Source of the DNA: Psammoneis japonica
Taxonomy: Eukaryota
Direction of reading: 5' to 3'
DNA length: 64,000 bases
Assembly: GCA_008632985.1 (NCBI GenBank)
Contig: QPGO01000049.1
Location: 62,001-126,000 of the forward strand
This document shows, piece by piece, positions 2,161 to 60,567 of the stretch. Position 1 is the stretch's first letter; each line of letters starts with the position of its first letter. A program made the translations under genes and the position numbers. Under the pieces are notes generated by a model. That model did not search any database. It saw only the letters and a program-made list of their open reading frames with translations, and was not told the origin of the DNA.

Positions 2161-2427
2161 CAAACTTTAAGTCAGGACAAACTCCGAAGTCTTTGGCATC
2201 GGCAACAACACATAAGCCCCACAAGTAACAATGACCCGCATGGTTTTAGTATGACTCCTGATTTCAAGTCAGCACATGACACAAAAATCAATAATGATGA
2301 AGCGACTAGCACTATGCGAAATGAAAGAGTTGTGTGAGCAACCGCCACAAGCTTATCGATGATGCACTGTAGCTAGTTAGAAAGGAGGGATATTCTGTAA
2401 CTGCGATTTGAATCAAATCACGCCAAA

Positions 2428-5828: not shown

Positions 5829-6044
5829 CACAATTATTGGAAGTAGTCGTAGACTGTAGAATGGATGAAATTTTGTGTTCGTTGGCATTACCAATAAGGC
5901 AATTGATTCTACTCTCTAGAGTGTGCACTCCAGCGTTGGTGGTGGGGTCTCTGTTTACATGTATGAAAGACGGAGCTCGAGAACAAGGGCGACGCCGGAC
6001 AACTCAACAATTGGGACGACAACCAGGGCATTGTCTCCATTAGT

Positions 6045-36208: not shown

Positions 36209-36266
36209 GGTAGTAGCCAAAGTGTGGGAATTGTGAGAGGGTGGTGGCAATCTTTCGGCTTTCACC

Positions 36267-36909: not shown

Positions 36910-39900
36910 TGCTCCCGTTTTGACTGATTGTCCAACGTGCGACGACTGCTGATGTCGAAAGCATTAACACCAGGCAGTGGCCCTGCTCATTTTCACGAGC
37001 TCCAATTTGCACAGAAGCCACGTGCTGGTTTCTGTGCATTTGTGCAAATTTTGTGCCAGTCGCGTCATTGGTGGGTGTTGTGCGCCGGCCCTGACGAAGT
37101 CTTTCTTGGGCACAAAATGTTTTTCATGTGCAGTGCTTTGGCGCAAATCTGCGCAACATTTTGCACAGGGTGTGCAGAACCACCAGGTGGTTCGTGTGCA
37201 TGAGCAGGGACACAGACAGCATGAGCAGCCATCATTCGAACCCAAACTTGCTCAGTCAGTTTGTGACAGCCCTGTGATTGGCAGCACTCGCAGTCGCAAA
37301 CCAGATGTTTGCATGGTGCAAAAAGATCCACCACCACACCATGTCAGTGTGGCTGAGCTTTTGTTTGGTGGATGTGATGTTGAAGACTTTGCTGCAGATT
37401 TTCTTGATTCAAATTTCTTCTGCTCGTTGTCAGCTCTTGCACCACCCAAATGGCGCACCAAAAATCCAAGAGCTTGCAAGGATGTGCTCAGGTCTCACAC
37501 TTTGGAGGAGATGAGACATTGCATTTCCTGCTTCTGTGATGATGATGTGCCAACCATTGTGCCTGAAATCCATTTTGATGAAGATGACAGAAAAGCAAAA
37601 TGCAGCCCAACCAATCTGACCAAGTTTGAGAACAGCCACTGGTTGTGAAGCACTTTGTGCAGTGCTGCCCAGTGCGCAAGATCACTGGAGCTCCTTTTGG
37701 TGTGTCACAACATTCAGCGAAGAGACATGTTGAAAAATGGGCACCATGGTGGGCCAAACATGGAGAATTTTTTTCACTCTCCCGATGCCCCCAAGGAAGT
37801 GCCAGATGAGTTTGCTGAAACACTGCTTGACTTGGTGGCTTTTCTTGGCAATGGAAAAGATGCTGCTGCAGACACAAAGCACAAAGATGATGATGCATGT
37901 TGCACACAACAAGCCAGCTCCAAAATGCATTGTTTGGCAACTTGGTTTTTGAACTTTGTCATGGTGCATGCACTCTTGTGTGAGCACACTCAGGTGCATG
38001 GGGCTCAACTGGACAAGAGCAAATTGGTGAAATTAGTTGGTGGGTGCAGAGAAGAGAAAATGCCAACACAACAGTGGAAAGATGACCATGCCATGCATGA
38101 CCCATGCTGCAGTGTGCTGAAACATTGGACAGCACTTGAAATTTTGGAAGTCAGGGATTTGCTCAACACTTTGGTTCTGTCAATTGTTGACAAAATGAAG
38201 TGAGATGGCAAGATGGAAAACAGCACAACCAACTGCACTGAGATGGAAGCTGTTGAACCTTCTCAACCATCTGAAAATGGCCTTGTCAACCACATGAGTG
38301 CACACAGCCAAAATGTTGAATGTTCTGATGAATCCAACAGCAACGACTCTTGGAGCACTGGTTGTGAGTCCAACTGGACAGACACAAGCAATGACTGGAG
38401 TGAAAAAGGCATTGAGACAATGTCCTCTGCAGAATCCAGCACCAACCGTGATGGTGAGAAGGTTTCAAAGTGTGAGCACATTTTTGTGAAGTGCAATGAA
38501 TGGCTCAATGAAAGAATTGGGGTTGTTGAAAAAGGAGAAAAGCTCAAAGATGCCACAGTTGATGAGGTTGCATCACTTGTCCATGAAGACCAAGCCTTGT
38601 TGAAGGCTTCAAATGAAAAGGTGGCACTGGCTTGCTCACTGCAAAATGATCTAGAGTCATTTGTTCAGAAACAGGGGCCATTTGAGAAACTCCACAGGCT
38701 GCACAACTCAAAGGCCATCTGGCAAAACATGGTGAGTGCCTGCTTTGAAATGACAAAAGATTGTTGCTGGGAACTTTTTTGCTGGATGAGAAGCAAACTG
38801 ACTCAACCAAACTGCAAAATGCATGACACAGAGTTGCATCCAGAAGTTCACTTGTGCCTGCACAAAACCCTGCCAAACAAAGAAGAGCTCAGTGACAAAG
38901 GTTTTGAGAAGACAGAGCACCATTTCTTTCCACATTTCAATTGAGTGCATGCACCTTGAGTCTTGCAACCATGAGCTGTCAAACAATGTGATGAGCTTGA
39001 ACTTGAAGACAGGAAGGACATTTACAGGGTGCAGCATTGAATGGAAGCATCTTTTTTTTCTTGGCTTGTTGCTGTGAATGGTCTCCACAGCAATGTCCCA
39101 TGCAAGAATCTTTGCATTGTTCCATGCATGTTGGAATGGGGGAATGTGGAAATGAACCTTGGCATTCAACTCCAATGGCCAGGGGCTGACAGTGGTCTTC
39201 CTGTTGTCTCTTGGGATTGAGAATTGAGCAACGGCTAAAAATTGGCATTTGTGTTTGCTTGTGACAAGTTGATCTGCATTGGGTCTTTCCTGTTGTTGCC
39301 ACTGCTGCACTTTGCCTTCTCTTGCACAGTCACAAGTTCAGTCAAAAATGGCACATTGTTGGTTGGAGACAGGGGCACTGTTCTTTCAAATGCATCTTGG
39401 TGAGCACAATGCTGCATTTGGCAGAAAATGAAAAGCGCTGTGAGAGTGTGCAAACACACACCTCATCCATTGCAGCATCTGCAGCATGAAATGGGGTGTG
39501 ACAGAAGTTGTTTGGTGTTGGCATCAAACCCCAAGTAAAGCATGCAGCCTTCCTGTGTCTTTGTTTGCTCCGCCAATTGCAGATTTGATGACACCACTTT
39601 TGTCTTCATGGATGGAATGCAACAGACTTTGAACAGCCAAACCAAATCATCTTCACCAAGTGTCTTGCAGATGCAAAGCTCTCTCACATCAACAAGAACA
39701 TGCCACATTGTGACCACAAAAGAAACCTCAACCCAGATTGTGCTCACTGCCTTTTTGGCAGAAATTTTCAAACAAGCTTGGTGGCACTGAATCAAGCTCT
39801 GAGACACAATCATGACAACAACCATGATCCCAACCCACAGCACTGCAGGTCAACACCACAACCTCATGAACCATCCACACCCCAATTTGCAGTGGGACTC

Positions 39901-42900
39901 TCCAGCTCTGGGACTCTTTTGTTGATCAATGTGAGTCTTCTCACAGCCAACTCCAATTCTGACCAGTCACCAGCAACAGGGCATTCAAGTCAAGTGGTTG
40001 CCCAACACTGCAACATGTCAATTTGCACACATGGAATGGGCATGGCTTCAAAGCCAAACTGAGCATGCAAAGGTGGGCATGGCTCCTTCCCAACAAATTG
40101 CTCATTCTTGAATGCATTGTGTGAAGGAGCCAAAAATTTCTTGCTCAATGGCTTGCCATTAAAAAAGGTCAGCTCTTTAAACTGCCGTGCCATCTGGCAA
40201 CAGCATTGGGGAGCAACTCAGTGGGGTTGAAGCCAATGATGCCTCCTCAAGACAAACCAGGATTGTCTCCTGCATTTCCTTCAAATGAATTCAGTGGAAC
40301 CAGATTGTTGCTGATGTCAAGGACTGGGCAGCGCATGAACAGCACTGCAGTCTTGTCAAAATTCTCCATGTGGCCCGCTGGGATCACAGCCCATTGAAAT
40401 GATCTCCAGACCAGTCTGTGCCAGCAGCAACCCTCAGAAGGATGCAGTCTGCTGAGCCAAGAAGATTTGCTGTTGCCATCCAGTGTTTGAAGAAGTCACA
40501 AGCACCAATGGGTCAATTGGTGGGCAACAGGTCCCTTTCGCACACTTTCCATGCAACACACTGTGCATCAACTTTAAAACAAACAACCTCAGCCCCTGGA
40601 ATGATGGCCTCACCACCCTCACATCACAACACCATCAATCAACCGTCTGCCTCTAATTTGACAAGTTGGTGCTTGGCCTTGTGCTGAGCACATTCACGCT
40701 GCACTCCGCTGCCAACCATCTGTTCTTTGACCACACAAGCAATGACATCTGGCAAAGGATTGCACAGATCTCTTGCTTTTTGCAATGTTTGGTGTTGGTC
40801 AACCTCAGCAATGATGTTGCCGGCTTTGCCTTTCTGATGGTGCTTGTCCATCCATGATCTTGTTGTTTTGTGCAGCCCTCCCCACACTCTTTCTTGGATG
40901 CCCTGCCCTGTCAAAAACACACACAGGAGACACCCAGCTGAGACAAGCTTGTTGTGCATGGACTCAATCACTGTCAACGAACTCTCTTTTTCCACTGGCC
41001 TCACAGCAAATGATTCAGACTGCACTTTGTTGACATTGCCAAGGGCTTTGACCCACAGGTCACCAGCTCCCATTGTTGATGTGTCAAGGTGTCATGGAGC
41101 AGTGATGTGCTGAAGCGCAGCATGGAGGCACACAAAAACAAGTTTTGGTTGTGGATGTCCCTCAAAAATTTTTGGTGCACAACATTTGCACCTGTGCTGC
41201 TGCTCACTGCTTGTGCCAACATGACAAAACAACATGACAGGTGCAAGCTGGTCACCATGACCGACAAATGCCACTTGCAGCAAGGTTGGTTCTTGGGCAG
41301 GGGGAGACACTTGACAAGGGAGCCACAACAACTTGTGGGGAAGGGTTGGGCTGCTGTGACCACTTGAGGGCAATGGTTTGATCAAATGGATCATGATGTT
41401 CAAGTGTTTGTTTTGACAGTTTTGTTTGGTGCTCAGTTTCCAATCATGGAGCATGTCACTCACAAGAAGAAAAAAGACATTTTGGCAAACAAATGTTTCT
41501 TGGTGCTGTTTGCAATTGTCTCTGTCATGCATGTGCCTTGAAAGTCCAGACAGAAGCAGGGGCGAGCATTGCGGATGTCCCCACATTGGAGTCAGTGCTT
41601 TGTTTTGACCATTCTGTTCACAGCTCACACATCCAGTCCTGCAATCACACCATGTGCCTTGCCACAGACAAGAGTGAAAAATCATTTTGTCAAACAAATG
41701 TTGCACAACATTTGTGCATCTCAGTCTTGTTGGAGCCTTCAAAGCTCTTCTGTGTGCAGCGAGAGCTTGGCACAAATGGAGAAAAACAAAGAACAGATGG
41801 CTCACACTGAACTTTGATGCCATCAAATGACAATGATCTTAAAAACAACAAAACAGCCACATCTCCCACTGGCCTGTGTGTGGGCAACACTGTTTTTCCC
41901 TTTGGGGGCTTCAAAATGGAGTCTCAACCAATCTCCATGCCAGCATCAAGATGCCAAAAACACCTTGGCAAGTCATGTGATCTTCTCCAGGATGCATCTC
42001 CCAGAACACTGACTGTGTTGATCAAATCCTCATGGTGCGTTGAACAGCCACTGTTGTTGTCAAATCCTTGGGGTTGCTGCCCAACTTTGTCAGGTCAGTT
42101 GCTTCAATCACAGCCAGCGCTGCTGCTCATGGTGCCTTCTCAGCAGAGGGTGAAATGAACAAAAGACCAGTCACAACTCCAGTGCACTTGTTCTGCAATG
42201 AATGCAAGAGACAGTGCTTTGCACAAAACCCCAGCTCTGGCAGACAATGCCAAAGATTTCCATGCAGCCAACAGCTTCAACACTTCTCATCAAGAGTGTG
42301 GTGATTGTTGCCTCACAACAAAGCAGACCTTGGTGGCACTCTTCATGTGGCTCACTCCATGGATTGCCTTGCATCTGCTCACACAAGTGAGGATGAATTG
42401 GACACCCATGGCAAAGTGGCTTTGAAAGGTGCAGCACCAGGTGTCATGGTGGAATCAAGCATGCCAGAGGAGGCAAATGCAAAAACAGAAGGATGTGTCA
42501 TGGAGAGCAAGGTGCACACCAGCGGCCCAAATCTCATTGTGTGGCCCATCCACAATGTTTTTGACATCTCAACGACATGCACAAGGAGTGGGCACCCTGT
42601 TGCAAAAAAGGGACATGAGCTTGATGTTGCAAAGGGGAACATGTGGTCCATTTTGCAGGGGCAACTTGTCCAGCTGGACGTGGTGGTGAGATTCAGAACA
42701 AAATGATTGGAATTAAAGTGAAGCATTTGTTGAGAAGGCAAAAGCAGTGCCCAAAGGGAGCTCCAAATGGCAGTGCAAATGCAGCAATGAACTGAGCAAA
42801 ATCAGGAAAGACATTGCCAGTGACCAAAAATTGGCGGAACCCATGGTGCTCCCCTGGAATGGTGCAGATGTGAAAACATGCATGTTGTGGAGTGTGGCAA

Positions 42901-45900
42901 GAATCTGCAAGGGATGCACTGTGTGACCATGAAGACATCCAAAGCCAAAGATGCCCAAAGTCATTCAAAAATTTGTGTGGATGTCCTTGGCACACATGGC
43001 CAGATGAAAAAAGAGACCACAAAGGGGGTTGCTTTGCTGTGTGCAGCAACAACCATTCATGGCATTGGAGACTGAGGAGCAGTCATCTTAACTTTCCTTG
43101 CAACATCTGATTGATGCTCACAACTGTTTTTTGCTGCAATGGCTGTGACTGATTGTCCATTTTTACAAGAGGAAGAACATTTCACATAAATTGGTTGGCA
43201 AGCTGGTCATCAAATGACCTTTTCAAAGAGTCTCTTGTCCTGGCAAGTCATGACCAGAGTTCTGCTTGCATTGGGAATGACCTTCAGTGCAGAGTGTTGA
43301 GCAGTTGAAGGGCACACCACTGTCCAATCCACTGCAATCTCATGTGACAAAAATGAAAACAATGTTTTCATGTCTCAATGTCTCAAATTGCTGTGCTGAT
43401 CTTTCATGATGTTTTCTCATTTGCTGGATGGCACTGAGGCCTTTCAAATTACCCAATTGCTCCACTGACATCAAGCCATGATGATGCCATTTTCATGCTG
43501 TTGTTTTGTGCACTCTAGTCTCCCACACAGGTTGACAAGTCAGACAGCCTTTTTTGCCCTTGCTTGCTGACTCTCGTGTGTCTCTGATGGAGCATCGGGC
43601 CTGCCTCAAGCTGGCTTTTGGGCACAATGTTTCATTGAACTCTCTGTCCAACACCTGCTTCCACCACTCATCCAGAGAGGCTGACACTGGCGCACACTCT
43701 GGTTCTTCAGTGGGCTGCAGTCTCTGGCTGGAAGAATGTTTCTTGGCTTTTTTCAGCTTGAAACCACAGCTCAGCTTCTGTCACAACCCTCGCCAACATG
43801 CTTTCTGGATTGTGCTTGCACAACATGCCAACCCCCTCAAAGCAGCTGCCATTTTTCTGCTCTCTTTTGTCCACCTTCAGTTGAACCAATGTGCCAGGTG
43901 AGATGGCCACACTTTTGTTGAACCTTGCTTTCATTTTTGGCGCCCCACTCTTGCCTCAGCCCCTGGCTTCTTTGTCACATCAAGCCTTCTTGTGTCTTCA
44001 GCTTTGATCTTCTGGGTTGTCAAGTGCATTGGAGGTTAGTGTGCCTCCATCAAGCTTCCAAATCTTGCAAGGGGGTGTGCCATTTGGAGCTGGCATGGGC
44101 CCCACATCCTTCATTTTTGTGATGGCTTGACATTTGCCAGCATTTCAACTTGGTCCAGCAACACAGCAAGCACTGTCTGCTCCAAACTTCTCTGCCATTC
44201 TGTCAACAAGTTGATCACATGCTGTCCTTTTTCTTTAGACTTGACACCCACATGCGTCTGCTGCAATTTGGCATCAGTGGATTTTGTGCCACTTGCACAA
44301 CTCCATGAAAATTGCTGGGCCCCTTTGTTCTCTTCTTGCTCCAAAGCTGCCATCAGGTCAAAACCTGGCATGTTCTCCCACTCCTCCAGCATTTCATCTT
44401 CCTCCTTCTCACTTGTGAAGCTGAGCCAGTCACCAGAGGATGTGAACACTGTGTTCCTCTGGAACCCCACCACAGCTCCTCTCCTCTGTTTTCCAGCCAT
44501 CGTTCCACACTTGAGCCTGATTTTGGATCCGATCCTGAGAAAATGCCCTTCAAGATTGTCCAAGGCATTGCAGAAGGGGGGCTGAGACAACTCACCATCT
44601 GTCTCTCTTGTTCTTCATTGATGACACTTTTCACATCATTGGGAATTTGTGCACATGATTTGTCTTCCATGTCAACAGCTGTCCTGCAAACTCTCCAGCA
44701 GAAGTGCAAGTCATTGCTTGGATTTTCAGCAACTCCCTGTGCTTTGTCATCACAGCCACTTGGCAACCATCTGGAGACATGACTTCAAGGACCATGGGCA
44801 AGCTTTCGGGTGAAAAAGGAAACTCCAAATTGAGGCACAAGCACAAGGTCCACAGCTGTTGTGCCATCATGCTGCTTTCACAGCAGCCTGCAACCCCAAC
44901 TCACTTTCCATGCTTTGCTGGAACCAAGCTGGTGGCAACATTTTGCTGGGGGGAGGCTTTTCTTGTGCCAAAACACATCTTGTTTGAGCACTGGGGCTTG
45001 CCAAGCCACACCATTTGAGAACAAACATTGCTTGGTCATTCAAAGTGCCCAGCTTGCAGTCAAAACCATCAAAAACTTCTCTGCAGCCTTTTTGGAGAGT
45101 GAAAACTTCAGAACCACATGAAGTCCAGACGGGCCTGCAACAAAAAGCAGCATTTTGACAGATGCTGGCAGATCCCATGGGTTTGTCCTCAATTCCTCCT
45201 CAAGATGAAAGAGTGGTGCTGTGGACCCAAACTGAGCATGAGAAAGTCTTGCATGGTCTGAGTGACCCTCACAAGCAATTGACCAGCAGAACAAGGACAC
45301 AAGCTTTGTGTCAAACCATCATTCTGTGGTTTTGTGGATGTGGGTCAAGCCATCATTGCAGCAGCTGATTGCAAACAGATGGCTGGAGATGCAGCACTTG
45401 CTGCACAGCAGCGCTGGATGAACACACTTGTGCCTTGTTCTGTCATGCATGATTGACTCATGGTGAGCTGTTTTGGACATGTCCCTGCCACGTTGGAGCA
45501 GAGACAGGGACCACAACTTGTTGGGGTCTGATGCACGCTGCTTCTTTGTTGCAAGGGGGTTTGTCTCCAGATCTGTCCCCTGCTTTGATGTCCCTGGCTC
45601 CTGCTCCTGCTCTGCCACTGCCTTTGTTGTCTGCACCCCTGGCTTTGTCAGCTTCATCTTTGTGGGCTCCACCTTGGCCCTTGCTTGGCTTTGGCTCCAG
45701 CTTTGTTTGCTTCAGCTTGGTGGGCTCTGCCTTGCTTGGCTTTGGCTCCAGATCAGTTTGTCTCAGCTGTGCTTGAGTTGTGGGTCTGGCTCCACTGGCT
45801 TGGGCTGTTTTGATTGGGTGGTTGGAGCATTCAACAGACCCCTGGTGCAGCGGCATTCTGGGCCCACCCTGGACAGTGTTGCTGCAGCATGGATTGAGCT

Positions 45901-47880
45901 CTTAGATGGCCTCAATCACTTCCTCTGCTGCTGTGAACTCCTTCCCATTGTCTGTGTGGCCAACAAGGGGGCAGCTGATCACAGAGCAAAAGTGGCAGAA
46001 CTCCTTTGCTTCATTTGTGGGAATGGCCACCATCCAGATCAACCCTGTGCAGTGATCTTTCAAACCACAAGCCACTTCATCAGCAGGGAGTTTGGGTCTT
46101 CTGGGTGGAGGTTTCAAGGGTCTTCTCCCACTCAGATCACTGCAGAAGCTTGGAGGCTTTTGTGGAAGCACAGTGCCATCAAAGTCTTTGTTCTCGTCAT
46201 TGAACACAGCCTTGTTGAAGGCTTCTCTGTGTTTGGTCTCCATGAAGATGCTCCTGACCTTCTCAGGAGAAGTTGTGGCAGTGGCGTTAAAGTGGGAGGG
46301 GTGGACGGCAACTGACATGGTGGCAAACGCAGCACAAAGAGACTCTTTCTGACTGAGAAACTCAACAGAACCACAACAAGACAGTTGCTGCAATGAAGCA
46401 AGCAACAGAGGCAGAGAGGGCAAGCTGGGGGAACCATTGAAAATCCATGATTTGCACAAGTCAGAACCCAGGCACTGGGTCTGATTGTCTGAAATCCATG
46501 TTCAAAAGATTCCATGCCACAGCTCCATGGAATCTTTTTTTGTGGAATCTTGGGTTCTAAAGAATTGTTGCAACATGCCCTTCTTGACAAACCATCTGCC
46601 ACACATTGCAAGACAATGCAAAAAAATCACAGGTTCTTGTCATGCAGCCTTTTTTTGTTTGTTTGCACTCAAAAGAGCACAGTGAAGAAATGACACACAT
46701 CATTTGTTCAACAGGTGGTGCTGATGGTTGGCTGCATCTTGATCCTTGACTCCACAGTGCTGAAGCAAATCAATGGAGTTGTCAGAAAACAAAATTTGGA
46801 AACATTTGCTTGTTGTGACAACCAAGAAAGAAAAACAGATGAGAGCACACAAATCGAAAAATTTGGCTCTTCTTTCTGACTCTTGGCACTCGGCTTAAGA
46901 GCACGACTGCACACCATGGTGCAGCAGGCTTCATCTGGGGGTGAGAAGATTTTGCAATGCTGTTCCTTCTTTTGTGGAGAACAGAATTCTGGTTTCTTAG
47001 AAATTTTTTTCTTCCCTCATCTTCATGTCCCCATTTTCTTCCATGACACTCTCTCATTCTGCCTTGGTTCAAACATTTTGCCAACATGCACATCATTGCA
47101 CATTGATTTGCATTGTCAAATCCAATGTGGTTGTTTGTTGTGAATGTGAAGAAAATGGAACCATGAGCAATTTTGTGCACCCAATGTTTGCAATGGTGTG
47201 ACAAACAACAGTCAGAGTCAATCCCCAAAAATTGTGGGTGCAGATTTTTTGCCAAACCTCAAAACAATGCGCAGCTGCGTCTTTTTGAAAATTTTTGTTT
47301 TTTTTTCCCAGACACACAACCTGACAATGAGACAACAGTGCTTCATCTAAACTGCTGCTGTGAATGATGCATGCCATTGCAAGTTTGCAACTGCTGTCGT
47401 CTGGACTTGTGGGGTCCTTTGTTTGCAAAAAGTGGTTCCGCACTCACAGAGAAATGCGTGGATTTGTCCAAATTCATTGGCTTGAAAACAGTGGTGCACA
47501 AACAAATTGATTGTCACCATTGTCAATGAGCACCACTTCACTCATCATTTGCATTGAATCTGTTGTTTGTTTGTGCAGAGAGTTGGGCATCACATGTTGG
47601 TTTGTCAGGATGTCAATTTTGTGGAGGCCAAATTGCATTGTCGGCAACTGTGAGTTGATGATGATTTTGTCAACAACAATGAGAAAGGCAATGAAACTTG
47701 TTGATTTGGGAGGCATTTGTTGTCACAATGATGTCAAGAAACAAGAAGCACTCTCATCATGAGGAGATGGATGGTTGGGGGGATGATGCATGTCTGCATG
47801 CCAAAGGTGCAAGCTCAACAGGGAACACTTTCAAGAAACGAATGAACTGCATGTCAACCATCCAAGTCGGGCCCTCTTTC
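36910..47880. mobile_element. Large degenerate TpA/CpG-depleted TE-derived block, mostly unclassified
   Basis: About 25 TA dinucleotides in 11 kb by eye; decayed Cys/His-rich ORFs on both strands; contains an integrase remnant. Confidence 0.6.
45830..46460 (-). pseudogene. rve/DDE integrase remnant of Ginger/KRBA2-like type
   Basis: LKDHCTG...GHTDNGKEF...(stop)...GGPRMPLHQGSVECSN matches the D, DNGxEF and GRPxxPxxQGSVE catalytic pattern. Confidence 0.65.
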
Positions 47881-47881
47881 T

Positions 47882-48279
47882 TGATGAAATGGCAGTTGGA
47901 AAAGCAAATGCAACCCAGCGACATTGTGTCATTGGGTGCAATGAACACACTTGTCAAAAGACACCCCAGCAAATGATGCAGTTGCTGGCCACACTTCACT
48001 GAAATGTGAACATTGCATCTGCACAAGTGTGGTCTCACACACACAAGCAAGGCGGGTGCATTCTCCTTTCATTCCACCTTGCTCTCAGCAACATTTCTTG
48101 CTCATTCCAACACATGTTGTTTCCAGTTTCCTTGGTGGATGTCACTTGCAAATCTCCTCCCCAACCACACACTTGTGGCAACAGATTTAGCAGGGATCAT
48201 CTTCAACTGTCAAGACAAACATGGATCATTGGACATTGCTGCAGATTTAGCTGATTGGAGTGCTCAAATTCCTCCAATG
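47882..48279 (-). repeat. 3' LTR of the older element
   Basis: Aligns, with indels, to 52552-52675 joined to 59789-60078. Confidence 0.7.
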
Positions 48280-51200
48280 CTCCCCTTGCTCCAAGGGAGG
48301 GGAATGTGCAGTTGTGGCACAGTGTGCATGTCCCATGGCAATGTGTTTGACCCTTCCTCAGTCACCAAGAGATGACACAAGATGCCAAGATCCTCCCAAC
48401 TTGGAACACATTTGCTTCAAGCTTGGGATTCTTGGTGAAAGCACTGACAATTCTTTCTTCAATGGCAAGGGCAGGTGTGGCAGAAGACTCATTGTCACTG
48501 GAGTTGCAGGATGCATGGTCAACACTGTCAGGGTCCATGGTTGATTTGGGGCTCTTGCATGGAAAATCAAGTTGGACAATGACATTCTTGGGTGCAAAAT
48601 GCGTGATGACACCTCCACCTTTTCCCTCATGAGTGCCTTTGATGAATGGCACATGCTTGCCAATCATCTTGAAGCTGTGATGCCTGTGTCCAAACAAAGG
48701 CAATTGGCAGATGAGCATGTTGTTGGGTGCAATGAAAAGCATTGATTGGGAACTTTTGTGAGAAGTGAGCAAAGTGCACTCAGAGCTGGATGCACAGTGC
48801 TGTCACATGGGATCATGCACATGAATGGAATGGTCAGCTTTTGCCAAACAAATGACAACCAACTGTCAAGGTTTGCTGACATGCATGCATGGATGCAACA
48901 CATGCAGCCTGCTGCAAGTGCCCACAATTTCAAAATTTCAAATGAATGCCAATGGACAGCAGAGCCCCTTGCTGGCAAGGACAACCATGACCATGCTGTT
49001 TTGTGTGGGTGAGTGGCGTGCCTTGCAAGGGTTGACAAAACAACTCATTGGGAATGCCATTGAGGAAGGCTGCATCAGCCAAGGGCTTCATTAAAATGTC
49101 ACTCATGTTGTTGCCAGCTGGAACATGGAAGAATTGAATGATCTCAGCTCTGTGCACACTTCTTGGATCATTGTCAGCATCATGGATGATGAGATCAGGC
49201 ATGGAACTGCCATCATCATGGTTGGTGCAGTTGACAGGAAATGTGACTGCATCTTTGTTGGTGCTGCAATCTGGTGCACAATCCCCCATGTGGCATGGTT
49301 GATGGAAACCCTTGATGCAACTGGCCCTGGATCAGGGTCTTGTGCATTGCTTGGCAAAAGTGTTCCACTGGGTTCCACACACCAGGCATGGTCATGTTGA
49401 TCAGGCTGAGGTCTCAAAAAGTTGCTTGTCTGTGGGTGACTGGTTTGTGACAGTCATGAGTGTTCCAAGTGTTCCATGTGTCAAGAAAGGGACCACAACT
49501 CCATTTGGTGTCATGAGCCATTGTGTTCGGCAGTGACCTCTCCTGTGCTGAGGTGGTGGTGGGCAACAGAGTCAACAATGCAACCTGCCTCTCACAACAC
49601 TGGCATTCCAACAATGAGACAAAAAGAAAGCTGCAGGGTTGGCTGTGCCTTTGTGCATTGACAGAGTCATGACTGAACCAACCACCAGGCAAGTCCACCA
49701 CAGTTGCACCACTGGTGATGTCCAGACCATCCATTCTTGTGCATGATTCATCAAAACCAATGAGGTTTGGATTGCATCTCATGTTGTCATGTGGGTGCCA
49801 ACCTGGGCCAAAGATGCCTGCATCAGCCCCACCATCTGAAATGAGCAGGGGTTGGTTGTCACGGGCACATCCCAACAGGGCTCAAGCTTCAAGGTGTGGC
49901 ATGCTGCCAATGATCAAACAAGTCATGTTGACAGATCAGAAGAGTCCCATGAGGTCTTGAGATGCCTCAAGGAGAGACCACGCCATTCCATCATGACTGC
50001 TGTCATCTGCACCAGTTGCAGATGCTGAGTGTCAATGGAAGAATCATCTGAAGGTTTGTTGTGTTCTGCAGTCTGGTTGGGCACAAACGCACATCTTTTG
50101 AGCTTGATCAATGGGACACTGCTTTGGTGAGGTGTGCTTGTTGTCCACACAGTTGTTTCTTTGTTCTTGCCAGCAACAAAATGGTCCACCAATTTGTCAC
50201 ATCATTGGAAGAGGAGGCTTTGTCTCTGTCAGGAACCAATTGCAGAGTTGCAGGTGGGACTTCACAACTGTCTGGGATGTCCATGCCTCTGCAAGTGTGA
50301 TGAGCAGCATTGACATGTGCACATCAACAATGGACTGAATGAAGCTGTCAACATCACCTTCCAAGCATGACAGTGCTTGTGCAGCCTTCTTGGCATGGCA
50401 GCTGCTTTGTTTTCTGTGTGGTCTTTGTTGCACAGGTGTGCCCATTTCCAAAGTTGGGTTGAGGTCCACTTGCAGGATGGGGAGTCATGCACACTGGGCA
50501 ATGGTGTCACATGTCAAGCAAGAGCACAGGTTGGCAAGCAGCCTTGACTTGCATGCTCCATCTGTCCACTGACATGCAGTGTGCACTGGTGTGTCCATGT
50601 GAACAGCACCCTTGATGTTGATTTGGTTGATCTTGGTGAAGGCAGTCTGGCATTGACAAATGCTGTGATGCCTCCAGTGCAGTGTTGATGGGAGCATCAC
50701 ACATTGATGGCATCCACCCAACTGAACTCAGCAAGTCAGAAGCACCTTCTCCTTTGTGATGCTCCAAAAACCACACCATGCCCTGAACCCATCCTTGTTT
50801 TTCTTGTGTGGTGTGTCTCAGGAATTGCTTGCCAACTCCTTTGTGGCATGCAGCAAACAATGCACTGTGCACACACTTGTGGTCCACATGGAGTTGAGCA
50901 AGGGGGCAACAATGATGGGTTGCAACTTGGGCATCATCTCCCCAAGACACAGTCACCATGTTCCTCACAGGCTTGTGGGGTGTCTGGATCCATTCACAAC
51001 CCACCTGTTGCATGATCCAATGTCCTCCTTTGAAGAGGGATTTGAAATTGGGGAAGGTTGCGTGATCCCCATCCCCCATGCAATCTTGATGAAAATGGGG
51101 TGTCACTTGTGCACATCATGGCAACATTCCTTGGATTGGCACATGCATGGGTTCCACAGGTGATGACAATGACCCATGTCAATGCATGAGAGGGCTGCAC

Positions 51201-52675
51201 TGTCCAAGTCAGGAGCTAAAAAGGCATCTCAATTGGGACATCCCCCCTGTTGCCATGATGTGATGCATCAAGTGACACAGTGTGGGGTGGTCATGCACCA
51301 TGATGAGTGGTGTGCACAGGTGTGGTGGGCCTCTGAAGGACATGCGGGGGACAAGTTGAGATGCATGTCAGTGAGAGGCTGAGTGTGTGGGTGGAGGGTC
51401 TGATGGTGGGGCTGTTGCAGGAGCAGTGGTGACAGCTGGTGTTGGTGCAGCACCAGAGGAGTTTTTGGTCAAGGCTGTGGCAGTTGCTGGTGTGTGTGGA
51501 TGCATCCACATGAGGGGCATTTGGGAGCACCTTGGCAGTGCTGGCAGTTGTGGGAGGTGTGGGATCCTTGTGGAGCTTGAGCCACTTGATGTTGAACAAG
51601 ATGTTGGCATCTTTTGCCATGCACAGCTAAACCTTCCTTGTCAAACAAAGAGACCAGGAAGTCACCTGCATCACCATGCATGAAATCTCTTGCACAGGTC
51701 CCAAGCAAACATGTGGGTGTGCATTGTGTCCACTCCAAGGTTCCTGAAGGGTTCACATCTGAGGATGTTGCACACTTTCAACAATGGGAGTTGGCAGAAG
51801 CCCACGAAGAGTTGGATGTTGGTGATGCAATGTTCGCGCAAGAACTGGGTGGTGTCAGCAGACAAGCATGGTTTGCGGGCTGGTGCCGTGAGAAATTCTT
51901 ACAGTGTGTCACTGGTTCTTGGCGCTGCACACACAAAAAGGCGGGTCATCAACATTGTCCTGGTTTGTGGTGGTTGTTTTGGCCTTCAAGTCATTCTTGG
52001 GGCACTTGCTTGAAGGGGGTTGGTGATGCAACATCTGCAAGCATGTGTCAGGGATGTGTCAGTGTTGCACAGCGTGTTTTGCAGTGTTTTCATCACTGGT
52101 CCCATGCTCTTGTGCCTGAGTGTTTTGCAGCATTGTGTTCACTGGTCACATTCTTGTGTTTCTTCAAGCCTCTGCAACCTCTGTCAGTGGTGCTTCTCAT
52201 GTCTGGCATGAACGTTGAGAGCCTGTCACAGGGGCACCAAGCTTTGGTGCTTGCAAAACACACTGTCAATTCAGCGTCCTCTGCCAAATCCACAAGAGGC
52301 AACATGGGCTCTCTCTGATTTTGTTCAATCCCTTGGGCAATTGCCAGTCACCTTGAAGACCTTCATGTGAGCACAGACCTCCTTGGGCTGCTCAACTTCC
52401 TCAGTTGTGCACCGGCAGGAGTGCTTCTGCCCCAGGCTCTTGACTCCTCGAATGTTCGTGCGGGGCTCTCGACTCGAATCTTCGTGCTAGATGCAATCTG
52501 GTCGCCAACAGAATCTCTTTCTCTCTGGCAGCTGAACAAAGCAATTGGCTGTGATGAAGTGGTGGCAGCCAGGAAAGCAAATGAGATCCAGTGGTGTTGC
52601 ATCATCGGGTGTGATGAAATGAACACACTGATCACAAAGGACACCCTGACGCAGCCACTGGGCACAATTTGCCAA

Positions 52676-52951
52676 TGACAGGATTTGAGCAGGATTTGGG
52701 TGCGCGCAAAATGTCGCGCGCTGTTTAGTTTGCCGCACACAGTTTTGTGTGCTTTAGTTCCGCGCGTTCGCGCGCGATGCAGTTTGCTTTCGAGCCACAA
52801 GGCTCACAAGAATAATGACAGTGGCCCGGTTGTGCCGACTCACACGTCTTTCGGCTCCTGTGACGGTCTCTGAGCGGAGATTCATCTGCCATTTAGACAG
52901 CAGTGAGGAGTCATTGTTTGAATTCTTGCCATTTGCCTTCATTTTCTGTCA
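52676..52951 (+). repeat. 5' LTR
   Basis: Gapless match to 59508-59783 with 22 mismatches by manual alignment. Confidence 0.95.
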
Positions 52952-53890
52952 GATTGACAGTCTTGCTCATTGTCAACCCATTGAGCAACCGCCATCATCG
53001 TCGTTGATTTACCAACGACGCCATTTCAATTCTGCGTGGACCTCCGCACATGATCTACATACATCGGCAAGTCTGCGCGCATTCAATGCCAGGGCATCGG
53101 CAGGAAGTTAACGTCACCGTCAAGTCTCCTTGCCACTGGATGTCTGGATTGATTGCACTGCCTTTGATCGCTGAAGACATGCATTCAACGGTCATGTCCA
53201 AGTCTGTCCTTGATCCTCATCCCTTGACACACCCACTCATCAGTTGACGGTCAAGAACCCCACACATTCAAGGATCTTCGTCGCTGAAGACACACACACA
53301 TGTGCGCATCTTCACGGCCAAGAACCTGCACCCACTCTTCGGACTGCGGTTTTGCTGCCACTCTGCAAGCACACCGAGTCCATTGTGCCTGATCCACCCT
53401 GGACTGCTGGTGCTCTGCAGTTCCACCAGGTCCACGAGGATGACTGTGAGAGCAAGCAGCCGTGATTGCAGCCTGCGTTGGGGCGAGGGTGCTTTCCCGC
53501 GTTTGTTCGTTCGTCCACAGCGCCCAACGCCTACGTCAACTGGCCAGCCTGATCGGGAAATCCAACCGACATAAAATGAGAACGGTTCGGGGGTCTTGTC
53601 CACCTCCAGTCAGCTCACCTGCAGGGGTTTGCAACCCGCTGCTCCGCTCGCAAGCAACCCAAAGCGCCGCTGGCTGCGGGTTCGGACGTGCCGGCACAAC
53701 TCTGCGGACCGGACAGGAAGTTTAGCACTTGGCAACGAACGGGGTGGCAAAGCCCGGCGACTTCTGATTTTAAGATAGATCAAGATTTCAAGTCAAGTCC
53801 ATTTCAAGTCAAGTCTGTTCTCACCCAAGCTTCAAGCCTGCCTTCGCTTCCCAACAAGAGTTGCTTGTCCTGACACCACTTTTGTCCACC

Positions 53891-56800
53891 ATGGTTCTCA
53901 CTCGTCAGCAACAAACCGATGGTTTCGAGCACGTTGTTGGAACCATGCTTGCCCAGGGTGCTGGGAGCCCTCTCCGTTTGGCTTTGGCACAAGACGGCAC
54001 GGACTCGCATCAGGAACTGTTCACGTTCATGCTGCCCCAAATCGACTCGCTTGAGTGCGACAACGGCACTGATGTGATCCCTTTGCCCCGTGGTTACAAG
54101 AACATGTTGGCAGCTCCAGTCAGTCTGTGCATTGTCAAAGCACACAAAGGTCTTGACGTTGCCAATGACTCCTCGTTGTTCACGCATGACGAGTTCCTTG
54201 CCTGCCGCCTCAGCCCCGACTGCATGTCTTCTGTGTCCATCGGCAGCTCACCCCTCGCACCTCCGCATGTCACCAACCCGACCAAGGCACGCGACCCGGT
54301 GCGGGACTTCAAGCGAGGCATCAAGCATGATCCCACCGCTTTCACGGCTCTCAAATCCGACAAGCAGTGGCACACTTGGCACACCTCACTTGTGGCACAA
54401 GCCCATGCCCAAGACGTCGAGTGCATTCTAGACTCGTCGTACAAACCGACCAGCCCCGAAGACAAACTGCTCTTTGCTGAACAGCAAAAGCACATGTTCG
54501 CTGTCTTCGAACGCATCCTTCTCACCGACAAGGGCAAGGCTCTCATCCGCGAAAATGTGGGGTCTTCTGATGCACAGACCGTCTGCCGCGCCTTGTCTGA
54601 GTGCGCGCTCGCCTCCACCCGTGCATCTGTCGAGTCCTCCACCCTGCTGACGCACCTCACCACCGCACGTCTTGGTGATGGTGCTTGGAAAGGTCCGACC
54701 CACGGGTTCATCCTTCATTGGCAAGATCAGTTGCACAAGTGCGAGGCACTCATCCCGGCCAGTGACCACTTCTCTGAAGGACAGAAGCGCGTCATGCTCG
54801 AGAATGCCGTGCACCCTGTCGAGGAACTCCGTGCTGTCAAGAACCAAGCTGATCAGCATCGTACGCAGAGTGGCAAGAGCCTCACATGCGATCAACACTG
54901 TGGCTTGCTCCTCTCCGCGGCAGCCCAATGCGACAGTGCGTTTCAACCCAAGACGACACCTCGAGCTCCCCGCCGCGCCATGTGTGCACACGACGTCTGC
55001 TCCGAGGAACCGTCCGACGATGTGTTCTACGACATTGACAGTGACATTGACGTCCTTCAGGCCAATGCTGCCTGCACCCGTGGTCCCAGCCTCACCGGTG
55101 ACCAATGGAAACGTCTCCCTCCCGACCACCAACGGATTTGGGATTCGTTGCCCCATTCCTCCAAGGCGATCATCCTTGAGCATTCTCGTCCGCCTCCCCG
55201 CAACCCGCGAAACAGCAACTGCCATGAGTCCGTTACGGCCAACCTTCACGACCAACGCCTTGGGAGTGACGGTGATGTCAACTTGTCCAACACGACTCCT
55301 GCTGACTCTGGTGACTCCGCTCCAAATGTGGGTGCCACTTCGGATGATCCCATCCTGGCGCGCCTCACCAAGCGCAAGCCACTGCCACCCGGTGATCTGC
55401 ACCGTCTGTTGTCTCCTAACCAAGCCCCCAATGCCAGTCGACCGGGGCCATCCGCCGCTCCCTCTACCCCGCCAGCTTCTGCCGATGACATGGAACTCAA
55501 CGGCCGCACTTGCCGCCGCGTTGACAACCACAATGTCATTTGCTCTGCCTCTGCTCATCGCTCCACACGCACTGGCGCTCTAGTTGATCTTGGGGCCAAC
55601 GGCGGCATTGCTGGCGACAACGTTCGCGTCATTGCACGCACCTCTCGCCAAGTCGACGTTCAGGGCATTGACGATCATCAATTGGTGGACATCCCTGTTG
55701 TCACCGCTGGTGCCGTCATTGAGACCCAGCGTGGTCCCGTCATCGCCATCCTCCATCAGTGCGCGTGCACGGGAAAGGGCAAGACCATCCATTCCTGCGG
55801 CCAGCTCGAATGGTGCAAACAGGATGTCAACGATCGCTCTGTCAAGGTGCCCAACGGCTTGCAACGTGTTGCCACTCCTGATGGCTGTGTCATCCCCATT
55901 GACATCAAGGCCGGCCTGCCTTGTGTTGCCATGCGACCTTACACTGACGCCGAATGGGACACCCTGCCCCATGTCATCCTCACCGGTGATGACACATGGG
56001 ATCCTTCCATCCTCGATCACTCTGTCACTGATGACGACCAGTGGTGCGACGCGATCTCTGACCCACAGGACGATCCCACTGCCAACCTGTTTGACGAATG
56101 CGGCAACTGCCGTCATCGTGTCGTTGTCAACGAGACCATCATGTCCGCTTCCTTGTCTGCCGATCACGCGTCCGCCCTCGATGATCACCTCATTCCGAAC
56201 GACGACGTGTTCTGCGAGTGTCATCTGCACGCGATTGACCCCAAGGACGACGACGTCCCGCCCCCGGAGCGCACTGCACAGCCCAAGGACCCGCCCTTCG
56301 AGTCTCTTCGGCCTTGCTTTGGCTTCCTACCCACCGACACGGTCCGTCGTACTTTTGACTGCACCACGCAGTGCGCCCGCATGCCCACCGGTACACACCT
56401 TAGGAAGGCCTACAAATCACCCAACCCCGCCCTTGATGTGCACCGCCGCAACGAGCCTGTCGCCACTGACGCCGTTCATGCCGACACCCCGGCCGTCGAC
56501 TCTGGTTGCACCAGTGCCCAACTGTTTGTTGGCACCGAGTCTGCCGTCACTGACGTCTACGGCACCAAGACGGACAAAGAGTTTGTCAACACACTCGAGG
56601 ATCAGATCCGTGAGCGTGGTGCCCCATCCAAACTCATTGGCGACCGTGCTCAAGTTGAGATCAGCAACAAAGTGCTCGGGATCCTGCGGGCCCTCTTCAT
56701 CTCCAGCTGGCAAAGTGAGCCTCACCAGCAACACCAAAACTTTGCCGAGCGTCGACACCAGACCGTGAAGCGCATGGCGAACACTGTCATGGATCGTTTT

Positions 56801-59560
56801 GGTTCGCCCGCCCACACATGGCTGCTGGCGCTCATGCATGTGTGCTTCATGCTCAACCACACAGCATCCCCACGTCTCCACTGGCGCACGCCCCTTGAGA
56901 CTCTCACTGGCTCCACCCCGGACATCAGCCCATTGCTTCACTTTCACTGGTGGGAACCCGTGTGCTTCCACCTCGATGACTCCGATTGGCCGTCCGAATC
57001 CCGTGAGTTGCGTGGACGCTTCGTTGGCATTGCTGAGCATGTCAGCCACCAGATGACCTTCAAGATTCTCTCTGACGAGACTCAGAAGATCCTCTGCCGG
57101 TCCAACATCCGCTCCGCTGCCACCGATCCTGCCGTTCGAAACCTGCGTCTTGATCCTCCTGATGGGGAGCCACCTGAACCCATCATCAAATCTCGCCATG
57201 ACGACAACCCCATCGATTCTCCTGATGGGGAGATCAGGACACCCAAGATGCCAGTTTTCGATCCGCAAGACATCATTGGACGCACCTTCCTCATGCAGCC
57301 ACAAGAGGACGGACAACGCCACAGAGCTCGCATCGTCAAGGCCGTCGAAGACCACGAATGGAAAGTGAACGGCAATCCCGAGCTCACTGAGTTCGTCTGC
57401 TCTGTCAACAACGACGAACACGAGGAAGTCCTTGCCTGCAATGACATCATGAATCACATTGAGCAAGAAGACGAAGACACTGCTGTTTGGAAATTTTGAT
57501 GCATCGTGTCACATGAAGGACCTCTGAAGCCTCACGACCCAACCTGGAAAGGCTCAAGCTACAACATCATGCTTGAATGGGAAAGTGGGGAGATCACGTC
57601 CGAGCCTCTTGCCATCATCGCCAAGGACGACCCCGTCACCTGCGCCATCTGTGCACGAGAGAACGGACTCCTCGACACGGATGGCTGGAAGCGGTTCCGC
57701 ACCATCGCGAGGCGCCAAAAGAAGCTGTTTCGCATGGCCAACCAAGCCAAGCTTCACTCCTTCTGCACTGCACCTTGCTGCAAGTGCGGATGCGAAGTTC
57801 CCCGGAACTGCAAACACGCCATGTCACTGGACGAACGCAACGGCAACCGCAAATGGGGAGACGCAACTAATCTCGAGATGGACCAACTCGACGAATGCGA
57901 AGTCTTCCATGACTGCGGGCCCTTCGAGTCTTCCACTCCTCCTGCGGGACACAAGAAGATCCGAGTGCACCCAGTGCACGACGTGAAACACGACGGTCGC
58001 CACAAGGCACGACTCGCAGCCGACGGGCACCTCACGGACGTGCCTGTCGACAGTGTCTGCTCCGGAGCAGTCTCCCTCCGTGGCCTTCGGCTGATGATTT
58101 TCCTGGCCGAACTCAACGAGTTGGAGACATGGGCCACCGACATTGGCAATGCCCACCTTGAAGCCACCACCAAGGAGAAGCTTTACATTGCAGCCGGACC
58201 CGAATTTGGCAAACTCGAAGGACACATCCTTGTCATCCACAAGGCCCTGCATGGACTGCGCAGCTCCGGTCTCCGCTGGCACGAGCACTTCGCCGACTGC
58301 CTGCGAGCTGAAGGCTTCTTCCCCTGCCGCACCGAACCCAACATTTGGATGCGCAGGAACGGCGACCACCATGAACACATTGCCATTTATGTGGATGACC
58401 TCGCCATTGCCATGAAGGACCCTCAATCTTTCGTCGATGCTCTCACGGAAAAGCACAAGTTCAAGCTCAAGGGTGCGGGACCCATTGAGTTCCATCTGGG
58501 TTGCGACTTTTCCCGGGATCCCGACGGAACCTTGTGCCTGTCTCCGCGCAAGCACATCGAGCGCATGGTTGACAGCTGCGCCCGACTGTTTGGGGAGAAA
58601 CCTGCCACCAACGCCCTGTCACCTCTGGAGAAGGGTGACCACCCCGAACTGGACACTTCCGAACTGCTGGGACCCGATGGCATTCACAAGTTCCAGTCTC
58701 TTGTTGGTTCACTCCAATGGGCAGTGTCCCTTGGTCGAATTGACATTGCCACGGCCGTCATGTCACTCTCTAGCTTCCGAGCTGCGCCCCGTCAAGGCCA
58801 CTTGGATCGTGCCAAACGCGTCTGTGGGTGCCTCTCCAAGATGCGACACGGTGCTCTCCGCGTTCGCAAGGAAGAGCCCGACTGTTCGGATCTCCCTGCC
58901 CCGGCCTGTGAATGGATGCATTCCGTGTGCGGCGAAGCAGAAGAGATGATCCCGAAGGACGCTCCACCACCCCTTGGCAAGTTCGTCACTGCCACCCACT
59001 ACGTCGATGCAAACTTGTGCCATTGCATGCTCACCGGACGCTCTGTCATGGGAATGCTCCACTTCCTCAACAAATTCCCGGCTGATTGGTTCTCTAAGAA
59101 GCAAGCCACCACAGAGACTGCGACCTGCGGGTCTGAATTTGTTGCTGCAAGGACTTGTGTCAAGCAGATTGTTGACCTGCGCATCACCCTGCACTGCCTT
59201 GGCATCCCGATCCGTAATGTCAGTTGCATGTTCGGTGACAACAAGTCGGTTGTAGACAGTGCCACCATCCCGCACTCCAAGTTACACAAGCGACACACTG
59301 CACTGTCGTTCTGCCGTGTGCGTGAGGCAATTGCCTCTGGTTGCCTTGAGTTCCACTTCATCGAAGGCTCCCGCAACCCTGCTGACATCCTCAGCAAGCA
59401 TTGGGGTCACTCCCAAATCTGGGACCTTCTCCGCCCCCTCATGTTCTGGAGCTTCATTTCATCCAAAGTCGAATCTGTTTCTGTGACTCCTCAAGCAAAC
59501 TGGGGAGTGACAGGATTTGAACAGGATTTGGGTGCGTGCGAAATGTCGCGCGCTGTTTAG
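53891..59560 (+). pseudogene. Copia gag-pol polyprotein pseudogene (in-frame TGA at 57497, many Tyr->His/Cys substitutions)
   Basis: Gag DFKRGIK; protease VDLGANGG; integrase SEPHQQHQNFAE; RT KHDGRHKARL and YVDD; RNase H GSEF, FGDN, NPADILSK. Both ORFs are in the same frame across the stop. Confidence 0.9.
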
Positions 59561-59783
59561 TTTGCCGCGCACAGTTTTGTGTGCTTCAGCTCCGCGCGTT
59601 CGTGCGCGATGCAGCTTGCTTTCGAGCCACAAGGCTCACAAGAACAATGACAGCAGCCCGATTGTGCTGACTTGCACGTCTTTCGGCTCCTGCAACGGTC
59701 TCTGAGCGGAGACTCATCTGCTGTTTAGACAGCAGTGAGGAGTTGTTGTTTGAATTCTTGCCATTTGCCTTCATTTTCTGTCA
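59508..59783 (+). repeat. 3' LTR
   Basis: Preceded by PPT GGGGAG and followed by TSD GCCAA. Confidence 0.95.
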
Positions 59784-60567
59784 GCCAAACACAAACATTG
59801 CACCTGCACGAGATGTGGTCTCACACACATGAGCCAGGTGAAGTGCATCCTCCTTTCACTCCACCTTGCTCTCAACAATGTTTGTTCACTCGTTTCAACA
59901 CTTTCATTGGTGGGTGTCATTTGCAAATCTCCCCCCCCCCCCCAACACAGACTTCCTGTGGCGGCCACAGATTTTTTTTTTTAGCCAGGATCATCTTCAA
60001 CTGCCAAGACAAACTTCACAGTTCATCAGACATGTCTGCAGATTCGACTTGTTGAAGCACTCAGAGATTCCTCCAACATGAGACGCATCGATCAAAGCAG
60101 GGCCCCGCCATCCAAGTGGAACACATTGCACGCAACTACCTCTAGAGCAAGGCGGGGACCGAATCCCGAATCCCGAATCCCAAGGATTTCTATCCTTTTT
60201 AGGAACTAGGCTATTCAAACAATACCATACAAAAACACAAAGCTTAACTATTTCTATCGACACCTATTTTCGTATTCTAAAATTCTGACACATGGAGGAA
60301 GCGCTGTCGTGTCGGCGGCGGTGTCTTTCCCGTAGAAATCGTACGAGTCGCCACGTAGAAACGCGTCAGTCGCAATCCGTTTCTCGCAACTCTGCAGAAA
60401 TATTTTTTTTGTATGTATCGTTGTTGTTGAGGTTGTTTTTATGACACCTCTTGTTGTTCTGTTTTGAGTTTCATGGTCTTGGAATAAAAGAAATTGAATT
60501 GTCGGTGTGGTTTGTTTGAATAAGCAAGCCGTTCTCAACGGCTTGTTGAATTGATTGATTTTTGAAT

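Follow-up and report, generated by a model that had tools for sequence, protein, structure and literature searches.

A 64,000-nt stretch of the genome of the diatom Psammoneis japonica (contig QPGO01000049.1 of assembly GCA_008632985.1, positions 62,001 to 126,000 of the forward strand; hereafter the window, in whose coordinates all positions are given) contains a complete long terminal repeat (LTR) retrotransposon of the Ty1/copia type at 52676-59783. The element is almost devoid of the dinucleotide 5'-TA-3' (TpA), which was most probably removed by host-driven hypermutation of the integrated DNA. A repeat search and pairwise alignment gave two LTRs that are 92% identical, both starting with TG and ending with CA, and these are bracketed by a 5-bp target duplication, as in other Ty1/copia elements (Table 1). 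A reverse transcriptase (RT) domain lies, again as in Ty1/copia elements, in the C-terminal half of a single polyprotein of ~1,890 residues. This domain matched Pfam RVT_2 (PF07727) with an E value of 2.1e-24 and a score of 86.9 bits against a cut-off of 31.6 bits; two intact relatives scored 104 bits each. The element has hundreds of relatives in aquatic metagenomes. It may belong to the diatom copia groups labelled CoDi.

The polyprotein frame comprises 1,889 codons and its first ATG, at 53891, aligned to residue 1 of full-length relatives (query residues are numbered here from 53861, so that this ATG is residue 11). The terminal stop, TAG at 59558-59560, lies inside the 3' LTR. In an example match, residues 11-1863 aligned with residues 1-1833 of a 1,845-residue relative at 56% identity and with no frameshift. 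The ~1,330 residues upstream of the RT are colinear with relatives, a layout consistent with an integrase-before-RT order, although no integrase family was detected. Contrary to what is expected of Ty1/copia elements, neither the window element nor the two intact relatives gave a Pfam match to gag, protease or integrase at E values up to 1, and PDB sequence and profile searches with the polyprotein gave no useful match. No second copy of the element was found within the window by tblastn or blastn.

Table 1 Features of the element and of the TA-poor DNA in the 64,000-nt window (o/e, observed/expected ratio)
Feature	Position	Strand	Remarks
Target-site duplication GCCAA, left copy	52671..52675		Identical 5 bases directly abut both LTRs
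5' LTR, 276 nt, TG...CA ends	52676..52951	+	TpA o/e 0.26, CpG o/e 1.12
Leader / 5' untranslated region	52952..53890	+	TpA o/e 0.19, measured over 52952-53860
Polyprotein, single frame	53891..59560	+	Colinear with relatives of 1845-1933 residues
Internal stop TGA, the sole one in frame	57497..57499	+	From CGA via CpG>TpG
Copia-type reverse transcriptase, Pfam RVT_2	57941..58573	+	86.9 bits
3' LTR, 276 nt	59508..59783	+	22 mismatches to 5' LTR, transitions only
Target-site duplication GCCAA, right copy	59784..59788		Matches left copy
Older direct repeat, left copy	48009..48277	+	71.6% identical to 59794-60076; 7 CA/TG discordant doublets
Older direct repeat, right copy	59794..60076	+	Within the TA-poor right flank
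Older block without TpA and CpG	37001..52675		31 TpA in 15.7 kb, o/e 0.03; CpG o/e 0.11
Second TpA/CpG-free block	6001..10400		Measured over 6001-10000: TpA o/e 0.03, CpG o/e 0.07
Third block, TpA-free and CpG-poor	1..2200		Continues past the window start; measured over 1-2000

An initial annotation of this locus had proposed that the polyprotein lost almost all of its tyrosines through TA>CA and TA>TG changes. Its count of about 10 tyrosines in some 1900 residues was accurate, as translation of 53861-59560 (+ strand, 1900 codons) gives 10 Tyr (0.53%), 95 His (5.0%), 68 Cys (3.6%) and two stops, one internal and one terminal. The open reading frame (ORF) holds only 27 TpA (o/e 0.11), whereas CA (o/e 1.32) and TG (o/e 1.60) are in excess and AA, AT and TT remain near 1.0. 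Codons ending in TA are correspondingly few (ATA 0, CTA 3, GTA 1, TTA 1). The LTRs have TpA ratios of 0.13-0.26, against 0.53-0.58 in the host DNA of the window, where the CpG ratio is ~1.0. The GC content of the element is 57.5% and the median of its relatives 47.9%. The annotation had also described CpG as still plentiful, and this holds in that the ORF retains 406 CpG (o/e 0.88), but CpG decay has nonetheless begun, being responsible for 24 of the changes described below and for the sole internal stop.

To give the changes a direction, the polyprotein was aligned to 240 relatives recovered in two database searches, and columns were kept when covered by at least 20 relatives with a consensus of at least 60%. 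Of the 1,000 columns that qualified, the window matches the consensus at 829 and departs from it at 171. Tyrosine makes up a median of 4.0% of the residues of the relatives (n = 240, minimum 2.28%), with medians of 3.7% for His and 1.2% for Cys in the first 120 of the 240. Every other residue type is retained in the window at 73-100% of its conserved columns, but at the 52 conserved-Tyr columns the window has Tyr at 8, Cys at 25, His at 13, Phe at 5 and Trp at 1. As TAT and TAC are the only tyrosine codons, loss of TA has cost the element 44 of 52 conserved tyrosines, 38 of which are now His or Cys, the replacements expected when A:T>G:C change at TpA yields TpG and CpA. The relatives thus carry Tyr, not His or Cys, at these columns, which bears out the proposed direction of mutation from TA to CA or TG and removes the objection that intact relatives might carry the window residues. 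For 9 of the 11 individual sites that the initial annotation had listed as conserved tyrosines the majority residue is indeed Tyr. At the other two (residues 1311 and 1373) the majority is Phe, with Tyr second at 80 and 96 of 222 relatives, respectively.

A single base change explains 133 of the 171 differences, and the remaining 38 require more than one step. Among the 133 are 34 TA>TG changes (plus one ambiguous) and 16 TA>CA changes, that is 50-51 of the TA type, together with 24 CpG transitions (22 CG>CA and 2 CG>TG), 13 other transitions and 45 transversions. Both strands are affected. The TA-type changes are not restricted to tyrosine codons and include L>P (to CCA), two V>A (to GCA), I>V, N>D, K>E, S>G and T>A, each of which adjoins the retained T or A. 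The Leu to Pro change and both Val to Ala changes were among those first proposed, and all three were recovered here; at the latter two positions Val is present in 213 of 221 and 220 of 221 relatives.

A nucleotide comparison gave the same picture. In the RT-RNase H region of 80 related metagenome loci the TpA ratio ranges from 0.31 to 1.13 with a median of 0.715, against 0.11 in the window. At 38 conserved-Tyr columns, defined independently of the first set, these loci keep a median of 89% of the tyrosines, and the window keeps 5 of 38, with 11 replaced by His and 18 by Cys. The tyrosine content of the relatives and the TpA levels of the 80 loci indicate that the family is not TA-poor by nature. 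TA is therefore the ancestral state, and its loss in the window element occurred on both strands. Two of the metagenome loci, L030 (14-1975) and L068 (452-2455), show a partial form of the signature, with TpA ratios of 0.31 and 0.33 and 12 of 23 and 13 of 24 conserved tyrosines kept, respectively, nine in each being replaced by His or Cys. A third locus, L066, keeps 12 of 24 conserved tyrosines yet is not TA-poor.

The TA-type changes have a peculiar consequence for the reading frame. TAT and TAC become CAY or TGY, NTA becomes NCA or NTG, and a TA that spans two codons (NNT|ANN) becomes NNC|ANN or NNT|GNN. None of these products is an in-frame stop and the change itself removes TAA and TAG, so the frame stays open however far the process goes. 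The open frame is a by-product of the mutation type and is no evidence of youth or constraint. TAA and TAG number only 4-10 in each of the five other frames of the element, and 26 ORFs of at least 100 residues overlap 52000-61500. The frame had been described as otherwise intact, which is true insofar as no frameshift is present, but it is interrupted by one TGA that does not stem from a TA change. At that codon the relatives have K or R and at the following TGC codon R, and a contig of another copy of the element (run X2) reads CGACGC at 57497. The TGA is thus a CpG>TpG change from CGA, and the TGC likewise derives from CGC. The inactivation of the element by targeted missense change rather than by general decay, as originally put forward, is supported by these data, with the qualifications that an intact frame is uninformative on age and that CpG decay is under way.

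The two LTRs, taken as identical at integration, allow the changes to be placed in time. Their alignment has 22 mismatches at 277 positions, all 22 of them transitions: five doublets that read CA in one LTR and TG in the other, two TA-versus-CA differences, five CpG-versus-TG or -CA differences and five in other contexts. A CA/TG doublet requires a TA or CG ancestor and hence an independent change on opposite strands in each LTR. As ~11% of LTR CpGs have changed, we estimate that well under one such doublet would be expected from CpG ancestors. The doublets are therefore former TA sites that mutated after integration. By rough inference from the LTRs, most TA sites have changed, compared with ~11% of CpGs and ~1% per LTR of other sites. 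TpA loss precedes CpG decay and, as estimated from the LTRs, is roughly tenfold faster.

Other copies of the family bear on the same point. When the contigs of a public sequencing run (X1) were matched to the window, 14,173 fell on the element whereas the flanks were covered by single contigs at a depth of ~60, indicating a high-copy family. The X1 contigs match the element at 99% identity or more in 3,399 of the 14,173 cases. Variant places across the element contigs comprise 341 transitions and 41 transversions. Among the 40 listed of the 392 variant places, the window reads CA or TG where other copies have TA at 15 and where they have CG at 11. The reverse, CA or TG in other copies, occurs at three places with TA in the window and three with CG, and the rest are six other transitions and two transversions. 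Other family copies in the same sample still hold TA at sites where the window has CA or TG, among them several sites in the leader. A contig over the single-copy left flank differs from the window at two of 706 positions, 52275 (CG>TG) and 52489 (TA>TG). These two differences, anecdotal given their number, may stem from divergence between haplotypes or from change still under way at precisely the two hypermutable dinucleotides.

The loss of TA is not confined to the element. In 1-kb steps, TpA numbers 0-9 per kb in 1-2000, 6001-10000 and 37001-60000, against 26-58 per kb elsewhere. The element exemplifies a process by which ~29 kb of the window has been stripped of TA. Three older blocks totalling ~22 kb have TpA ratios of 0.03-0.06, CpG ratios of 0.07-0.21 and CA and TG at about twice the expected level (~1.9-fold in the block at 37001..52675); 1-kb steps through the TA-poor DNA outside the element give CpG ratios of 0.01-0.3. 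The edges of these blocks are sharp. At ~2200, 10400, 37000 and 60200 a single 200-nt bin takes the TA count from 0-1 up to 8-13, and a fifth edge, at ~6000, shows a drop from 12 to 2. The right flank of the element (59789-60136) has one TA in 348 nt and a CpG ratio of 0.42.

This right flank contains one copy of an older direct repeat, the other copy of which lies to the left of the element. The repeat pair probably represents the LTRs of an older element that hosted the insertion. The copia element lies 5 bp upstream of the right copy and is bracketed by the pair, an arrangement that indicates a nested insertion. At the outer margins of the older blocks, the last TA-free 200 nt (2001-2200, 10201-10400 and 37001-37200) still hold 5-9 CpG with 0-1 TA, so the TA-free domain extends slightly past the CpG-free domain. 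The genes between the blocks look ordinary and encode an alpha/beta hydrolase, a glycosyltransferase, a kinase and a DUF1800/DUF1501 protein. For the last of these, the closest cluster in a protein atlas carries the label Bacillariophyta (score 0.96), though this cluster may be that of the protein itself. Two repeats in DNA of normal TA content were also seen, a tandem repeat of period 156 (2.5 copies) at 3737-4119 and a repeated stretch of ~170-180 nt at 36266-36858, a little beyond the left boundary of the large TA-free block.

The few TAs that remain are not a random sample. TAT/ATA contexts make up 26% of TAs in host DNA but 6% of those left in the element and 4% of those left in the old blocks, and 59% of the residual TAs of the old blocks are TAA/TTA (the context counts comprise 41 sites in the element and 46 in the old blocks). 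This distribution is suggestive of a 3' neighbour preference. TAs in a TTTAG context are retained in both LTRs (52726, 52894, 59558 and 59726, representing two sites), and one of these sites, in its 3' LTR copy, is the polyprotein stop codon. Their retention agrees with slower change in TAG and TAA contexts.

We hold with good confidence that the element underwent, after integration, a host-driven and domain-targeted A:T>G:C hypermutation at TpA, acting on DNA, to which a slower decay of CpG was added. That the change took place in integrated DNA and in mobile or foreign regions only is indicated by the LTR doublets, the TA-free flanks, the edges resolved to 200 bp and the normal host genes between the blocks. 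In this scheme, a high-copy copia-type element would have integrated into older repeat DNA of the diatom genome, where a host process confined to the repeat domain would turn most 5'-TA-3' into CA or TG on either strand. CpG decay would be a separate and slower process that has just begun in the element and is complete in the older blocks. An enzyme may deaminate the adenine of TpA in DNA to hypoxanthine, a base that pairs with cytosine. Targeting may follow the silencing state or the repeat status of the DNA.

Several observations weigh against this picture. No new mutation was directly seen, and the data consist of one window plus the contigs of one sample. That sample may be the source of the assembly itself, in which case the contigs are not independent evidence against a base-calling artefact. 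The identity of the older TA-free blocks as transposons is unsupported, since none of their 112 ORFs of at least 90 residues matched a Pfam family. On the coding strand TG outcomes exceed CA outcomes by 34 to 16 (25 to 13 at tyrosines only, binomial p 0.07), so that a share of editing with strand bias or before integration may have contributed. Evidence on whether the changes lie in strand-coordinated patches conflicts, as a runs test indicated clustering (p 0.02) whereas local CA/TG skew gave nothing (p 0.57-0.79).

A different chemistry could produce the same outcome: thymine at TpA might be modified (oxidised or hypermodified) and mispair with G, or one enzyme of dual specificity might act at both TpA and CpG. 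TA is self-reverse-complementary, which makes A>G and T>C indistinguishable at the sequence level, and the older blocks have lost both self-complementary pyrimidine-purine steps, with only CA and TG remaining. A recent preprint also refers to ADAT2-type enzymes with activity on A as well as C (bioRxiv 10.64898/2026.01.13.699255). A single activity, however, sits poorly with an element in which TpA is nearly gone while the CpG ratio is 0.88, and with block edges where CpG persists after TA has vanished. The estimated tenfold gap between the two rates fits two separate processes, and we consider these alternatives unlikely.

Editing before integration, in which an ADAR- or ADAT-like enzyme acts on the retrotransposon RNA or cDNA and the mutated copy then integrates, would account for the twofold excess of A>G over T>C on the sense strand, and the same preprint describes ADAR-type enzymes as preferring a 5' U (bioRxiv 10.64898/2026.01.13.699255). 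Such editing does not explain why the two LTRs took opposite outcomes at five sites and differ at two further TA sites, nor why non-homologous DNA on either side is also TA-free with sharp domain edges, nor the TA>TG difference among the two found in 706 nt of the single-copy left flank. ADAR-type RNA hyperediting in the strict sense, with A>G on the transcribed strand only and before integration, was rejected on the 16 sense-strand T>C changes and the opposite LTR outcomes. On balance, editing before integration is quite unlikely.

An artefact of sequencing or assembly, by which a modified base in silenced DNA is misread and TA is called as TG or CA, must be considered given that diatom repeat DNA is methylated, according to a study of diatom DNA methyltransferases (PMC9998398), and that all of the data may stem from one sample. 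We regard it as very improbable. The k-mer contigs of the public run reproduce the TA-free flank almost exactly, a large number of element contigs agree at 99% or better, and other family copies in the same data read TA at the same sites. Each site, moreover, has one fixed outcome, whereas a misread modified base should, by our inference, give strand-dependent reads.

Scarcely credible is selection or compositional drift, whether through avoidance of TA on grounds of codon usage or RNA stability, through GC-biased gene conversion or by descent from an always TA-poor family. In its favour, most genomes show a mild deficit of TpA, the ratio in host DNA of the window is 0.53-0.58 and the GC content of the element exceeds that of its relatives. 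The loss, however, is as strong in LTRs, leader and unrecognisable old DNA as in the coding region, destroyed most conserved tyrosines, left other A/T-containing dinucleotides unchanged and finds no match among the 80 related loci, none of which falls below a TpA ratio of 0.31.

Hypermutation of integrated DNA at TpA has a very recent precedent, made public in 2026. In mutation-accumulation lines of the chlorarachniophyte Bigelowiella natans, 230 of 231 mutations in an integrated giant virus and virophage were A>G or T>C, all at TpA, at a de novo rate ~1000-fold above background, while the rest of the genome mutated normally (bioRxiv 10.64898/2026.01.13.699255). The same preprint reports that low-TpA coding sequences of B. 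natans are enriched for RT and DDE-endonuclease domains, and proposes an ADAT2-like adenine deaminase (bioRxiv 10.64898/2026.01.13.699255). The two systems share the TpA>TpG/CpA signature by strand and its confinement to foreign or mobile DNA. They differ in the host, a chlorarachniophyte there and a diatom (a stramenopile) here, and in the target, a single-copy viral insertion there and a high-copy LTR retrotransposon here. They differ also in extent, with a TpA ratio of 0.45 given for the nucleocytoplasmic large DNA virus region of B. natans against 0.03-0.11, near saturation, in the window. Here the loss is coupled with complete loss of CpG in older DNA, and the process is read from sequence rather than followed in mutation-accumulation lines. 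A search of the full-text literature outside the subscription journals turned up no report for diatoms, the B. natans preprint being the one source to describe TpA-directed hypermutation.

Our data support the view that the P. japonica element is a new occurrence of this kind of hypermutation, which extends it to diatoms and adds an order of events. The hypermutation of foreign DNA at TpA would thereby be known from two algal lineages that are only distantly related, the second of them the foremost group of marine primary producers, and would no longer be the curiosity of one chlorarachniophyte. The element would serve as a dated example in which TpA is lost first, in place and on both strands, with the loss stopping at domain edges. 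There are also consequences for annotation. TA-free DNA lacks TAA and TAG, so dead elements keep long open stretches in several reading frames and look intact to gene finders, and older TA-free elements become invisible to domain searches. Low TpA together with high CA and TG, with or without CpG depletion, could be used as a screening statistic to map such domains and aid a search for the enzyme. More tentatively, as a reading that is plausible but that we stop short of favouring, diatoms may possess a dedicated genome defence under which the adenine (or thymine) of each TpA in silenced mobile DNA is edited until no TpA remains, a counterpart in reverse direction of the repeat-induced point mutation (RIP) of fungi that makes no stops and whose signature, and perhaps enzyme, is shared with Bigelowiella. 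If true, the shared signature would imply an old and widespread mechanism of the clade of stramenopiles, alveolates and Rhizaria (SAR). In its boldest form, one dual A/C deaminase would clear TpA and CpG alike, so that CA and TG alone are left.

Among the better-known systems is the methylation and deamination decay of CpG in diatoms, 5-methylcytosine being found on diatom transposons (PMC9998398). That paper mentions RIP, and a term search of it found neither deamination nor dinucleotide. CpG decay explains the 24 CpG>TpG/CpA changes, the internal stop and the CpG-free older blocks, but leaves unexplained the TpA loss, which is the faster of the two and comes first in the element. The A-to-I editing of ADAR and the C-to-U editing of APOBEC enzymes resemble the process in their deaminase-type transitions, neighbour preference and use against selfish elements. 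They act, however, on RNA or single-stranded intermediates and are strand-biased, whereas the changes in the window arose in place, on both strands, in the flanks and independently in each LTR. The RIP of ascomycete fungi shares several traits: it makes only transitions, is dinucleotide-specific, acts after integration, is limited to repeat domains and lets LTRs diverge independently. Dependence on duplication is not counted among the shared traits. Fungal RIP itself was rejected as an explanation, as the depletion of TpA and the excess of CA and TG in the ORF run in the opposite direction. RIP turns CpA and TpG into TpA, enriching TpA and creating stops, whereas the process described here removes TpA, raises GC content and makes no stops.

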